In this document: positions 45,957-51,900 of the stretch, one piece after another
Layout of the letters: the number at the start of each line of letters is the position of its first letter
How positions within the stretch are numbered: position 1 is the stretch's first letter
IMG/VR virus record: IMGVR_UViG_2684623127_000007
Direction: 5' to 3' (one strand)
DNA length: 64,000 nt
Source: a virus
Taxonomy: Duplodnaviria; Heunggongvirae; Uroviricota; Caudoviricetes
Position numbers: made by a program

Positions 45957-48900
45957 TCATCCTCTCCGGATAAGGCACGGGCGTATTCTGCCAGTGTTTT
46001 CTTGTTGGTTGCTGCACCATCCTCTTCCTGCAGGCTCGCCAGCAGTGCACTGAGATCCAGCTGCCAGCGGGAAATACTGATGCGCAGCGCCGCCAGCGCA
46101 TAAACGAAGCAGTCGAGCGCCTCATTGCGTCGCTTTTTGCTGTCCCACAGTATTTTTTTCCTGCCATCCACCCATTTTTCGACCTGCTCTTCAGCAGTCA
46201 GTTGCTGCGCTTCGGTAAGATCAAAAATATCCGGGTTATTCGGGAAGTGAACGGCACCGGGAAGCGGTTCATCCCCTTCCGGCGTCAGTGTGAAGCGGTT
46301 ATAAATCTGCTCTTTCGCGGTATCCGTACCGATTTCGGTAAGGTAAACCCCGTTTTTGTTTCGCTTACGTGGCATGCTGGCCACCGGCTTTCCGTAGACG
46401 GATGCCCCTTTAATGGGGATCACCCGGAACAGCCCATGTTTTTTCGAGCGTTCATACACAATGGTCGGGTCAATCCCGCCAGTATCCCAGCAGATACGGG
46501 ATACCGACATTTCTGCACCATTCCGGCGGGTATAGGTTTTATTGATGGCCTCATCCACACGCAGCAGCGTCTGTTCATCGTCGTGGCGGCCCATAATAAT
46601 CTGCCGGTCAATCAGCCAGCTTTCCTCACCCGGCCCCCATCCCCATACGCGCATTTCGTAGCGGTCCAGCTGGGAGTCGATACCGGCGGTCAGGTAAGCC
46701 ACACGATCAGGAACGGGCGCTGAATAATACTCTTTCCGCTCTGCCATCACTTCAGCATCCGGACGTTCGCCGATTTTCGCTTCCCACGTCTCACCGAGCG
46801 TGGTGTTCACGAAGGTTTTACGTTTTCCCGTATCCCCTTTCGTCTTCATCCAGTCTTTGACAATCTGCACCCAGGTGGTGAACGGGCTGTACGCCGTCCA
46901 GATGTGAAAGGTCACACTGTCAGGCGGTTCAATCTCTTCACCGGATGACGAAAACCAGAGAATGCCATCACGGGTCCAGATCCCGGTCTTTTCGCAGATA
47001 TAACGGGCATCAGTAAAGTCCAGCTCCTGCTGGCGGATGACGCAGGCATTATGCTCGCAGAGATAAAACACGCTGGAGGGGTCATCCGGCGTCCATTTGA
47101 GGCCAAACGGCGTCTCTTTGTCGCCAAATTTAAGATACTGCTCCTCCCCGCAGTGCGGGCAGGCAACATGAAAACGCATAAAATGCGGGGATTCACTGGC
47201 TGCACGCTCAATCTGGCAGGTGCCTCTCACTTTGGGCGTGGAGCCACGGATGGACTTTGGCCAGACCGAGCCTTCAATACGCTTGTCACCCAGGAACGTC
47301 GGAGAGCCTTCCTGTTCAATATCCTCATCAAAGGCAGCAAGTTCATCATAACCCGCCACATCAACCGACTTTTCACGGTAGTTTTTTGCCGCTTTACCGC
47401 CCAGGCACCAGAAGCCACGACCATTGGTGAAACGCTTCATAGTGAGCGTGTTATCCCGGTGCTTTTTGCCATACCACGGGGCCAGAGACAGCAGCGACGG
47501 AATATCGCGGATGGTAGGCTCGACGTGGGTTTTCATAAAGTTCTCGGCATCACCATCCGTCGGCAACCAGATAAGGGTGTTACGCTGCTTATGCTCTATG
47601 AAGTAGGCATAAACACCCAGCAGCATTTTTGAATAACCAACACGGGCAGACTTCACCACATTCACCTCGCGGATGTAGTCGCTGCCCATCGCATTCATGA
47701 TAGCCCGCTGAAAGGGTAGTGTTTCCCAGCGCCCTTCCTGGTATGCGGATTCTTTCGGGAGATAGTAACTGGCATCCGCCCATTCAACGGCAGTCTGTGG
47801 CTCCGGCCTGAACAGGGCTCGCAGCCCGGCGCGTACATCACGCCGCAGAATATCAATCTGACTGTTCGATATATTCACTCAGCAACCCCGGTATCAGTTC
47901 ATCCAGCGCGGCTGCTTTGTTCATGGCTTTGATAATATCCCGTTTCAGGAAATCAACATGTCGGTTTTCCAGTTCCGGAAAACGCCGCTGTACTGAGAGA
48001 GGGATCCCGTCAAGAATACTGGCAATTTCACCTGCGATCCGTGACAGCACGAAAGTACAGAATGCGGTTTCCACCACTTCTGCGGAGTCTCTGGCATTCT
48101 TCAGCTCCTGGGCGTCAGCCTGCGCACGCGTAAGTCGATGGCGTTCGTACTCAATAGTCCCAGGCTGGAGATCTGCCTCGCTGGCAGCCCTGTAATCCTC
48201 AACCTCTTTACGGAGTTTTTCATTTTCGATATCAGCTTCCCTCTGCGCATACCACTGAATTGCCGTGGCGGTATCAAATACAGATTCAACGCCCTTACCA
48301 CCTCCGGAGACGCAAGGGAGCCCCTGAGACTGCCAGCGTTCAATCGTTCGCGGATCCACGTTGAAAATTTCGGCAAGTTTCTTTTTATTAACCTTCATGA
48401 AACAGTCTCACAACAAATACAGGGTCCGACATGAAAGTGCCCGAAAATGACTTTTTCAGGCGTTTTCATGTCGGACCTTTACGGATTCGATATTAGAAAA
48501 AACAAATAGTTATGTTCGAGAAGTACCGACATGATTTTCCCCGGAAAATTTTCATAAATAGCGAAAACCCGCGAGGTCGCCGCCCCGTAACCGGTCGGAT
48601 CGCCGGAAAGGACCCGCAAAATGATAATAATTATCATCTACATGTCACAACGTGCATCTACGCCATCAAACCACGTCAAATAATCAATTATGACGCAGGT
48701 ATCGTATTAATTGATCTGCATCAAATTAACGTAAAAGCAACTTCAGATAATACAAATCAGCAACACTGAATATGGGGCAACATTATGTCATCAAAGAACA
48801 GAACCCGCAGAACAACAACCCGCAACATCCGATTTCCAAACCAGATGATTGAACAAATTAACATCGCTCTTGATCTGAAAGGTTCAGGAAATTTTTCAGC

Positions 48901-51900
48901 GTGGGTTATTGAAGCCTGCAGAAGAAGATTAATTAATGAAAAATATTCTCAATTTGTACCCAACAAAGACAAACACGACCAGAGAACCTGTTCAGACAGG
49001 TTTACTTAAACGACTTATATATGACACAAAAAGCGACCACTAAAGTCGCTTTTTCTTATGGTAACAGGCAATAACGCTCTCAGATATTTTTTAGCATTTT
49101 TTTGACCGCGCGTTTCCGGACGTATTCTGTTCTCCTGTCCCTTTATATCGTCGGAATACCCGCCGCTCTTCAAATCCCATTCCCAACTCAGAATGTAGTC
49201 TGTTGACCGCTTGTTTTATTTCGGTCAGGTTCACCGGTGAAACCGGAGTCCGGCGCGCCTTACGCAAACACTCTGCTCGTTTCTGTGCCGCCACTTTTCT
49301 TTTCTGGTCATCACTTAGCTGTACCATCACTTTTGCCCATCGTTCAGCTGCTCTCCGGTACAGTCCTTTTTTCTCCAGACATTCTGCCAGGTGATCATGT
49401 AGCATAAGTAACCTCCGTTTATCTACAGACTGCCATCCTGAATTTACCGTCCTTAATAAGACAACAATAAAAAACTAATTATATAAAAACAATAAAAATA
49501 ATATACAAAAAAACTAAACAACAAAGAAAAGCAAATCATATCTGGCATTTTAATTGAAAGAGCAATTACCGAACAAAAGACGCTGACTATATACTCAAAA
49601 CCAAACAACAATTCTGCCAATCAGGTATCATGGCAACACACGGAATTACCATGTTTTTGCCTTCTCTGCCCATACAATACGGGCATATACTTCATACTCT
49701 ATTGTAATATTTCTATCCATGTGCCCCACTCCATTTACCTGTAAATAATATTCAAAATATTTATCACAGAAATCGTTTTTGGCCATGAACTGAGCACACT
49801 ATAAAGTCCGGAACTGACTCTTTGTTAAATTACCTTAACGTTACCAGTAACACCTTCGTAACAAAACATCACGGTATACACTGGGTACGGATATATTCCT
49901 GTGCTCCTTCCAGTTGCTTCTGCATTGCCATCAGCCGTTCTCTGAGGATGAAATAATCCCGTTCAGCGGCTTCTGCCAGTCGGGGACCGGTTGCATTATC
50001 CACGCCGGAGGTGATGGGGGCTTTACGCAAGGAGCCTGGACAGTTGGCGTTGATGCGCAGGCGCTTACGACCAGCGGCAACATCAGCACGCAGAGTTTCA
50101 TTTTCAGCTCTCGCATCGGCTAACTCCCTCGAGTATTTTGCATCGAGCGCAGCAACATCACGCTGGCGCACCTGCATGTCAGTAATGGTGGCATTCGCCT
50201 GTTCCAGCTCTCTGGCTTTTTTATCGCGCTGCGCTTTGTAGGTGAGCGCGTTGTCACGGTAATGGTTTGTTGCCAGCCACAGCGCACCATAGCCAACCGC
50301 CAGGACAATAATCACCACACACAGAACACGGTTCATCTCTCTTTCACCCCACCAGTCCCGATAACGTCAGGACTCGCCAGGCGGTGGAAAAGAAAATGGC
50401 AACCAGCATGACTAAAAATGAAATGCCGACAAGTACACAGAGGCTCTTCACCAGCGTTATGAGTTTATCTGATATCATTAGCCACCCCATCAATCCGCCT
50501 TTGTTATTTTCCCTTTGCCTGTATCAGCCAGGACAAAATCAATCAGCATATTCGCTTCATTTACCAGCGTACGGATTTTTGATACATGCGCGGCTTTAAC
50601 CTGTTTCCACTCATTCAGCCCGGTAGCAAACACACTGGCAATGTTTTTATCCCGTTTCATGTCAGCACAAGCCTGGTTGAGTTCTTCCATCACGCTCATT
50701 TTACGGGGATTAACGACAAAACCCTTCGTCCAGTACTCGTAAAGAACATCGTCGCACTCTTCCTGATACCGGATGACCTTATCGCGGATTTCGGGTTTTA
50801 CTTTGTTGGGATTAATGGTTTGTAGCCAGCCGGCAAGTTTTCGAAGTGGCATGGACACCATATTGCGTTGTTTCCCATCCTCAGCAACCATAACGATTTC
50901 CGTTATAGTTGACGCAAAACGCTGTCTTAACTTAGCCAACTGTGATTGCCAGGCCAGCCCCATCCCCGCAACGACAGGTTTCATGGGAACGTATGGTTCG
51001 CCATTATGGTTAACTACATAAAGAGAGTTGCCGTGAAACGGCACGGCCATCATATTCATCGGTTATTTCCTTTTAGTGATGAACCTTGTCTCACAGGAAT
51101 CCAGCCCACAGAAAGGCACCGACAGCCAAACCGGTATCCTCAAGGGTCATCCTGAAAGGTTCTGTGTTGTGAGATGCGCGTGAGATGCGCAGAAATGACA
51201 AAGGCATCATTACGGTGCCTGAGTGTTAAACAACTGTTTTGACTTTATTCACTTACATTTTGCCAATTTGCAGGATTTCGTGTTATCCGTCCATGTAAGC
51301 AAACCTCATTTTTCAGCAAAATATTCTGCTTATCTGTCGATTCCCCAGCACGCCAGCGCGCTCTCCTGGTCACGACGGGATACCTGACCGTAACAGTTAT
51401 TTGAGCGAATACGGCAGTCCCTGCCACCGTCCTTAATCCACCAGCGAATCGCTTCGCAGGCACCTTTTCGATCTCCTGCATTAATCCGTCTGTAAAACGT
51501 CGACGGGAAACACTTACCGGGGCCAATGTTGTACGGACAGAATGACGCGATCCCCGCTTTCTGGGGTTCGGTCAGCGGCACTCTGATGTTTTTCTCCACC
51601 CATGCCAGCGCCTTATCACGCTCAATGGCGTTAACCCGGTCGCATTTTTCCTTCGACAGCTTCATGCCAGGAATAACAGGCTTACCATCCCCCCGGGTGG
51701 CTCCACGGCAGATGGTCCAGATACCCGCACCATCACGGTATGCTGTGGTGTGGTTACCTTCCTTTTCATCCAGAAACTGGTCGAGGATTTCAGGCGCAGA
51801 CGCCCCTGCACCAATCAGCGCCAGAACGGCAGCCGACAGGCCGTATCTGATTTTTGCGTTCATGGATATTTATCAGGGTTTATCGATTTCAAATCCCTGG

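Follow-up and report, generated by a model that had tools for sequence, protein, structure and literature searches.

The pchB moron of an Sp11-type Escherichia coli O157:H7 prophage and the cos-proximal YlcI/YnfO family gene beside it

The stretch of DNA analyzed here (64,000 nucleotides of IMG/VR record IMGVR_UViG_2684623127_000007, hereafter the window) is a lambda-type prophage of Escherichia coli O157:H7 with its late genes on the minus strand. We examined the region between its cos site and its lysis cassette and identify it as the pchB locus of an Sp11-type O157:H7 lambdoid prophage, in which pchB is a moron occupying the slot where lambda has bor and the adjoining plus-strand open reading frame (ORF) of the YlcI/YnfO (DUF3950) family is a neighbor by position, with no dedicated circuit between the two; we put the probability of this reading at about 90%. 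An original prediction made from the sequence had described a moron pair at this place, consisting of a PerC/Pch-like ORF preceded by AT-rich DNA and a ribbon-helix-helix (RHH)-like ORF, and had suggested that the two form a local regulatory circuit. All of the elements that it named are present where it placed them, and their identities and relations to one another are considered below.

Results

Identity of the minus-strand ORF

The 104-aa minus-strand ORF matches the PerC profile at 148.8 bits (cut-off 22.6) over profile positions 1-89 of 90, and comparison with strain Sakai, in which three group-1 pch loci are annotated, namely pchA (Sp4), pchB (Sp11) and pchC (Sp14), places it more precisely. 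Its coding sequence shows: 1) no nucleotide differences from Sakai pchB (ECs_2182, Sp11); 2) one difference from pchA, at nt 16 (L6V); and 3) two differences from pchC, at nt 172 and 183 (V58M). These are the diagnostic pchA/pchB/pchC positions of Uhlich et al. (PMC5931665), and because all three match pchB, the allele is pchB. In Sakai Sp11 the gene is annotated as “PchABC family transcriptional regulator”. The encoded protein is identical to PchA at 103 of 104 residues, and a tblastn comparison with PerC of the pEAF plasmid of enteropathogenic E. coli (EPEC) E2348/69 gives 47.1% identity across residues 2-88 (E=1e-17; pMAR2, NC_011603.1). A lack of similarity to PerC had been named beforehand as the outcome that would speak against a PerC-like regulator; the similarity found is strong, and the ORF is more than PerC-like (E=5.4e-44), being the pchB allele itself. 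A GGAGG Shine-Dalgarno sequence lies at 49412-49416, 686 of 687 records preserve the pch ORF intact, with conservation of 99% or more, and we saw nothing in the sequence that contradicts the identification. The group-2 and group-3 genes pchD and pchE were considered as identities for the ORF and rejected, pchE being a separate 90-aa gene in Sp7, downstream of two other ORFs in an unrelated element, whose product is only 40% identical to PchB.

The whole 1.5-kb locus agrees with that of the reference strain. Positions 48400-49900 are identical to prophage Sp11 of Sakai at 1501 of 1501 nucleotides, with the same flanks in the order Nu1, cos, DUF3950, pch and Rz. A megablast search of this interval against 5426 complete E. 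coli genomes returned hundreds of O157:H7 genomes at 100% identity, in which the products are annotated as “PerC family transcriptional regulator”, “YlcI/YnfO family protein” and “lysis protein”; the locus is likewise 100% identical in the genome of strain PA20. Beyond the locus, the window matches Sp11 only across 31949-52472, at 99.25%, its overall makeup being mosaic, and the prophage is a relative of Sp11 in another O157:H7 strain.

Within the PerC family, EPEC PerC and PchB share the same Pfam domain and both activate the LEE1/ler promoter according to the literature. PerC is about 89 aa long, plasmid-borne and encoded within the perABC operon under PerA control, whereas PchB has 104 aa with a basic C-terminal tail and is encoded by a prophage, monocistronically, in a moron. 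PchD (group 2) and PchE (group 3; ECs_1588, Sp7) also belong to the family of PchB, but their influence on ler is small; PchE acts as a repressor of curli and an activator of flagella, and its gene, in a different element, is part of a polycistronic transcript whose promoter lies ~680 nt upstream.

The moron slot between Rz and cos

The cosN site anchors the locus as the right-end/left-end junction of a lambda-type genome, and ~380 bp around it are 92-94% identical to lambda and Sp8. Nu1, beyond which lies the gene for the large terminase subunit, flanks the locus together with cosN on one side and Rz flanks it on the other, in agreement with the predicted placement between cos and the lysis cassette. 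The sequence ceases to be homologous to lambda and Sp8 at 48919-48932, directly behind codon 49 of the DUF3950 ORF, and becomes so again at 49891 within the 3' end of Rz. The ~960-bp pch cassette between these points replaces the ~1.75-kb bor/p78/p79 segment that lambda carries from the DUF3950 domain to the Rz 3' end. Since the cassette has no counterpart in lambda or Sp8 and the content of the slot is variable, the description of pchB as a moron is upheld: it is a moron in a variable slot between Rz and the cos-proximal backbone, where lambda has bor. The pchA, pchB and pchC loci of Sakai are each prophage-borne and each lie between a lysis cassette and cos.

We looked at slot content in 80 IMG/VR loci, among which the pch-linked allele is over-represented. 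Following the DUF3950 ORF, these carry either pch at +163, a p78-like gene at +144, or Rz directly at +246, and the upstream Nu1 is of varying type, with identities between 34% and 100%. Like bor and other morons between Rz and cos, pchB occupies this insertion slot as an autonomous AT-rich cargo with its own terminator and a function in host phenotype. In contrast to bor, which is transcribed leftward, against the late genes, pchB runs in the direction of the late operon, so that read-through into it would be possible. At 48928-48937, where homology to lambda and Sp8 ends right after codon 49, there is an AT palindrome, ATTAATTAAT, and in Sakai Sp4 the pchA cassette borders on a partial IS629 at the point corresponding to 48928. 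This palindrome may be a recurrent point of recombination or insertion that forms the left edge of the moron slot.

The AT-rich leader of pchB

The 463 bp from the pchB ATG to the Rz stop have a GC content of 0.33, as opposed to 0.50 for the whole window, an AT-richness reached by only 1.8% of all 463-bp windows. A 120-bp core at ~49440-49560 falls to 0.20, within the lowest 0.16% of windows. These values bear out the ~460 bp of very AT-rich DNA that had been described ahead of the PerC-like ORF. In a three-way alignment the block at about -50 to -155 from the ATG (~49440-49560) differs in pchB from its equivalents in pchA and pchC, which resemble one another there, while the remaining leader is nearly identical in all three. 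A published study reportedly describes differential regulation of PchA and PchB, and the pchB-specific block is possibly the basis of this difference. Matches to the H-NS motif at two or fewer mismatches number two in the leader, or 4.3 per kb compared with 0.9 per kb in the window, counts that are too small to weigh; the pch locus (ECs2182) is not listed in the accessible supplementary tables of the H-NS chromatin immunoprecipitation paper.

Two small minus-strand ORFs lie within the leader, one of 46 aa (49646-49786) that is deposited as a hypothetical or membrane protein, forms PHROG 2157 and keeps an open frame in all three paralogues (pchA, pchB and pchC), and one of 55 aa (49453-49620) that is also found in databases as a hypothetical or membrane protein and is represented in PHROGs. 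With ratios of nonsynonymous to synonymous polymorphism (pN/pS) of at least 0.8 among the pchA, pchB and pchC copies, and no Shine-Dalgarno sequence, both were rejected as candidates and are probably not genes. The most AT-rich stretches of the window lie away from pch, at 24800-27000 near the tail-fiber end, where GC content is 0.26-0.30 over 463 bp and as low as 0.17 over 120 bp; they probably mark other cargo or effector morons.

Function and transcription of pchB

The pchB gene has been characterized genetically and biochemically since 2004. Group-1 Pch proteins are needed for full locus of enterocyte effacement (LEE) expression as well as for adherence. All three of them activate a ler::lacZ fusion in K-12, and PchB, taken from strain PA20, stands at the top of five Pch proteins with 12,513 Miller units compared to 1,577 for the vector (PMC5931665). 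These published reporters confirm the expectation that a PerC homologue carried by a prophage activates the LEE, and they are the opposite of the absence of effect on LEE reporters that had been set down in advance as a ground for rejecting it. Pch binds AT-rich regions inside H-NS-bound domains, including the LEE1 (ler) promoter and other sites, and activates LEE1 by countering silencing by H-NS, StpA and Hha, an effect that is gone when hns and stpA are both deleted; moreover, the LEE of enterohemorrhagic E. coli depends on Pch more strictly than the LEE of EPEC depends on PerC (PMC4764244). According to the literature, PchB binds AT-rich, H-NS-occupied DNA along with PchA, relieves silencing by H-NS, StpA and Hha, and in this way switches on the type III secretion island.

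Upstream of these events, LrhA activates both pchA and pchB, and a double deletion of the two phenocopies deletion of ler (PMC4456613; PMC13012123). Butyrate acting via Lrp, and an NtrC/sigma-S pathway, feed into pchA. Translation of pchA is reported to be blocked by an anti-Shine-Dalgarno element in the coding region and freed by the small RNA (sRNA) DicF (PMC7769764). A corresponding structure in pchB was considered and rejected, as the folding of nt -120 to +200 is no better than that of shuffled sequences (z=+1.4), and a search of the window with Rfam at the gathering threshold gave no DicF copy.

In the lysogen, pchB would be transcribed from its own regulated promoter, and after SOS induction Q-antiterminated transcription of the late operon would read into it as well. 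Both routes are suggested by the AT-rich upstream region that pchB has of its own, its co-orientation with the late operon and the lack of a terminator after Rz: a consensus terminator scan found no minus-strand terminator between Rz and the pchB start, although the same scan also missed the hairpin at 49028-49054. Read-through of this kind agrees with the rise in group-1 pch reads following SOS induction (log2 2.1-3.5 at 12 h; PMC5931665).

The YlcI/YnfO family gene

The product of the 74-aa plus-strand ORF carries the RefSeq name “YlcI/YnfO family protein” (WP_001303940.1) and scores 66.6 bits against DUF3950 (cut-off 25) and 34.6 bits against NF041551 (cut-off 30). Codons 1-49 (48785-48931) make up the conserved domain, whereas the tail, codons 50-74, derives from the pch cassette inserted there. 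Among homologues the first ~50 residues are almost invariant and the C-terminal tails are unrelated and hypervariable, since codon 49 is immediately followed by the variable slot. YlcI (DLP12) and YnfO (Qin) of K-12 and an ORF of phage lambda, for example, are 94-96% identical to it over residues 1-49 and have the same position and orientation with respect to cos and Nu1, whereas their tails are completely different from that of the 74-aa ORF. The lambda copy is an intact 64-aa DUF3950 ORF on the l-strand, ~200 bp from cos (KT232076.1, 28275-28469), labeled “hypothetical protein” in that record, and ynfO appears on the 2024 y-ome list of uncharacterized K-12 genes. Sakai prophages Sp8 and Sp14 carry a DUF3950 ORF in the same place and orientation.

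Six pairwise comparisons over the 49 codons, involving the lambda, Sp8 and Sp14 copies, gave ratios of nonsynonymous to synonymous substitution (dN/dS) of 0.02-0.14, with values of 0.04-0.14 for lambda against the prophage copies. The more distant pairs differ at 11-15 synonymous and 1-4 nonsynonymous positions (dN/dS 0.02-0.05). Such strong purifying selection indicates a real, constrained protein as opposed to merely conserved cos-flanking DNA. The conserved core reads K-NIRFP-x-x-L-I-E-x-I ... NFSAWV-x-EAC-x-x-K-L, and its NIRFP...NFSAWV.EAC motif is kept in diverged homologues of 31-60% identity. The family, a small one, comprises 110 clusters at 50% identity among 1.84 billion representatives. 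ENA contigs of ~3.4-3.56 kb contribute dozens of frameshifted, elongated lambda-type variants, which have the look of sequencing noise from error-rich assemblies of a lambda-derived fragment, possibly a sequencing control, and which inflate the apparent size of the family.

One distant homologue of 129 aa (Logan SRR22184587 contig, 4001-4390) has the DUF3950 domain fused to a weak match to Terminase_2, a terminase small subunit domain, and the islet in which it lies carries an integrase and a primase-helicase and resembles a satellite or a phage-inducible chromosomal island. The fusion is a possible hint that the DUF3950 domain is connected with DNA packaging or with the recognition of cos.

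Two repeats lie between cosN and the DUF3950 start. At 48683-48715, 70-100 bp upstream of this start, there is a 13-nt inverted repeat, ATCAATTATGACG / CGTATTAATTGAT, that lambda carries unchanged; the DUF3950 protein could use it as an operator. At 48621-48637, 36-52 bp from cosN, there is a perfect palindrome, ATGATAAT-A-ATTATCAT, of which lambda has a version with one mismatch, GTGATAATGATTATCAT. Both repeats are candidate protein-binding sites. A sigma-70-like match, GTGACA-16-TATCAT, is present on the minus strand at 48648-48621, facing cos and Nu1. In Rfam searches of the locus (47500-51500 at a permissive threshold, and the whole window at the gathering threshold) no RNA family was found there, and matches of microRNA and long noncoding RNA families to the cos-proximal hairpin were judged spurious.

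A possible ribbon-helix-helix fold

The DUF3950 protein is plausibly an RHH DNA binder. The pattern of the core is compatible with a short strand and helix A followed, after a tight turn, by helix B, and the KG-SGN-FSAWV motif fits the turn expected before helix B. This predicted arrangement of a short N-terminal strand (NIRFP), a helix, a G-x-x turn and a second helix resembles that of the Arc/Mnt/CopG repressors, although no match to them in sequence or fold reaches significance. An AlphaFold2 model of the monomer, based on 34 sequences, gives helices at 19-32 and 39-55 behind an extended N-terminal segment, at a predicted local distance difference test score of 61; the strand would take shape only in a dimer. 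Alignment with hhalign to nine classical RHH domains, not a curated set, yields P=3.2e-4 and a probability of 39%, with NIRFP on the Arc strand FNLRWP. A profile search of the DUF3950 alignment against PDB sequences produced no significant match, its in-register match to the RHH protein CdbA (E=1) being below threshold, and Pfam RHH_6 matches one of the 34 relatives at E=0.09. A Foldseek search of the model against the PDB returned nothing meaningful, and was uninformative because the model is small and of low confidence. The RHH fold is thus a plausible best guess for DUF3950 and is not established. Regarding the RHH-like ORF of the original prediction, the ORF itself proves to be real and coding, while its proposed fold stays plausible, with weak to moderate support.

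Other features of the window

Coordinates of the features around the locus are collected in Table 1. Downstream of the Q region, Rfam searches at gathering level identified the anti-GcvB sRNA AgvB (56.6 bits, cut-off 56), the sRNA STnc100 (175 bits) and two tRNA genes, these hits lying at 54626-54685 (+), 54687-54895 (-) and 55008-55237 (-). Other elements, at 61176-61325 (-), 59448-60757, 18519-20965 and 5231-5419 (-), are the sok antitoxin RNA (hok/sok), IS629, ISEc8, and a pair formed by the C4 antisense RNA and isrK. The IS629 copy is 100% identical to that of Sakai and contains an ALIL frameshift pseudoknot at 60306-60422.

Table 1. Features of the pchB locus and adjoining genes, in window coordinates
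Feature	Position	Strand	Basis or description
Nu1, terminase small subunit, first gene downstream of cos	47853-48398	minus	Pfam Phage_Nu1 E=4.4e-91
cosN	48574-48585		exact reverse complement of lambda GGGCGGCGACCT
YlcI/YnfO-family (DUF3950) ORF, 74 aa	48785-49009	plus	Pfam DUF3950 E=1.8e-18; NCBIfam YlcI_YnfO_N
pch moron cassette, whole	~48933-49890		segment without counterpart in lambda or Sp8
Terminator-like hairpin between convergent ORFs	49028-49054	both	AAAAAGCGAC, 7-nt loop, GTCGCTTTTT
pchB, 104 aa	49091-49405	minus	Pfam PerC PF06069 E=5.4e-44
AT-rich pchB leader, 463 bp	49406-49868	minus	GC 0.33
Rz spanin gene, last of lysis cassette, directly upstream of pchB and co-oriented	49869-50336	minus	Pfam Phage_lysis E=1e-46; RefSeq annotation
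Rz1, embedded in Rz	49931-50116	minus	
Antirepressor-like gene	50490-51059	minus	
Lysozyme gene	51330-51863	minus	

Discussion

Alternative explanations

The identification of the pchB locus, with a merely positional DUF3950 neighbor, has to be weighed together with points that count against parts of it. A consensus scan found no sigma-70-like promoter on the minus strand of the AT-rich tract, so that transcription of pchB from its own promoter rests on the literature for pchA and pchB; silencing of this leader by H-NS is a possibility drawn from its AT content; late-operon transcription would read into pchB, and the increase assigned specifically to pchB after SOS induction by single-nucleotide polymorphism (SNP)-resolved counting is log2 1.74 (3.3-fold) at P=0.09 (PMC5931665); and DUF3950 proteins made by other prophage copies may regulate pch in trans. 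It could further be argued that this pchB copy is silent or redundant for the LEE, with pchA alone being of importance and the AT-rich leader keeping pchB off. Such a view could draw on the three near-identical pch paralogues per genome (median of three places), on the promoter-proximal block of pchB being unlike that of pchA and pchC, and on SNP-resolved expression in PA20, where pchB is low at an RPKM (reads per kilobase per million mapped reads) of ~11 compared with 91 for pchC (PMC5931665). We regard it as highly improbable: pchA and pchB are the two copies that the literature reports to be needed for full LEE expression, both respond to LrhA (PMC4456613; PMC13012123), the PchB protein, when expressed, is the strongest activator of ler (PMC5931665), and the ORF has been kept intact across nearly all records.

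Concerning the plus-strand ORF, two further proposals deal with what it is and what it does to its neighbor. That it is not a gene, its conservation being due to a function of cos-flanking DNA or to recombination homology and its frame being accidental, might be supposed from the likewise conserved (91-99%) 195 bp of noncoding DNA between cos and the DUF3950 ATG, from the weak Shine-Dalgarno sequence, and from its being unannotated in the Sakai RefSeq record. Yet the frame is open in all copies examined, the Prokaryotic Genome Annotation Pipeline (PGAP) annotates it in other genomes, and the low dN/dS against more distant copies and the motif retained by diverged homologues leave this supposition with almost no probability in our estimation. 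The local circuit, in which DUF3950 would be a dedicated, cis-linked regulator of pchB acting by upstream binding or by convergent, excludon-type transcription, has the geometry of the locus in its favor. The two genes are tail-to-tail with 3' ends 81 bp apart, so that the term “divergent” used in the original prediction, if it referred to orientation, is incorrect, the DUF3950 ORF being divergent only relative to Nu1, across cos. A small repressor is what an RHH protein typically is; in the IMG/VR loci, pch stands at exactly +163 from each DUF3950 allele linked to it; and an RNA-seq study lists the analogous ybcW-ylcI pair of K-12 among convergent excludons (PMC12288877). However, what lies between and around the genes points the other way. 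The hairpin at 49028-49054, with a perfect 10-bp stem flanked by runs of A and T, appears in the centroid fold of both strands (plus-strand z-score -2.6) and looks like a strong bidirectional terminator shared by both genes, and the pch leader shows no half-site from the inverted repeats upstream of DUF3950 more often than chance would give. The gene is also found intact by cos in lambda, Sp8 and many other prophages that lack pch. A count across the 5426 complete genomes gives 9456 places in 4170 genomes for the opening 151 nt of the DUF3950 ORF, and 1874 places in 672 genomes for the pch ORF (a median of three places per genome); at most 1874 of the 9456 DUF3950 copies (20%) can adjoin pch, so at least 80% have no pch beside them, and the two do not co-occur beyond what their shared backbone position entails. 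Conversely, pchA in Sp4 is functional and is a principal LEE activator, although an IS629-associated rearrangement has cost it its DUF3950 neighbor and no DUF3950 domain is detectable in the 50 kb examined, and four distant DUF3950 homologues reside in unrelated mobile elements (integrase/primase islets and a region like an integrative and conjugative element) with no PerC gene nearby. The proposed pairing of an RHH protein with PerC in a local circuit is not supported by these observations, and we consider it very unlikely. The DUF3950 gene is a fixed, cos-proximal part of the backbone of lambda-like phages, found next to cos in most lambdoid phages with or without pchB.

Significance

The pchB locus described here is already known, a reference gene in its reference context that is annotated in RefSeq and has long been studied, and nothing at it departs from the reference strain. 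Its correct recognition matters for annotation, since pchB is a master switch of the type III secretion island of O157:H7. An unlikely though specific role for the product of the YlcI/YnfO gene would be that of an RHH binder made in the lysogen that controls transcription at the junction of cos and moron, regulating its own expression at the conserved inverted repeat at 48683-48715 and opposing or insulating the converging transcription of the moron. If this were true, YlcI/YnfO would set the basal level of whichever cargo occupies the slot, here the virulence master regulator pchB, and a function would be assigned to an uncharacterized gene that is present in lambda and in ~77% of complete E. 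coli genomes.

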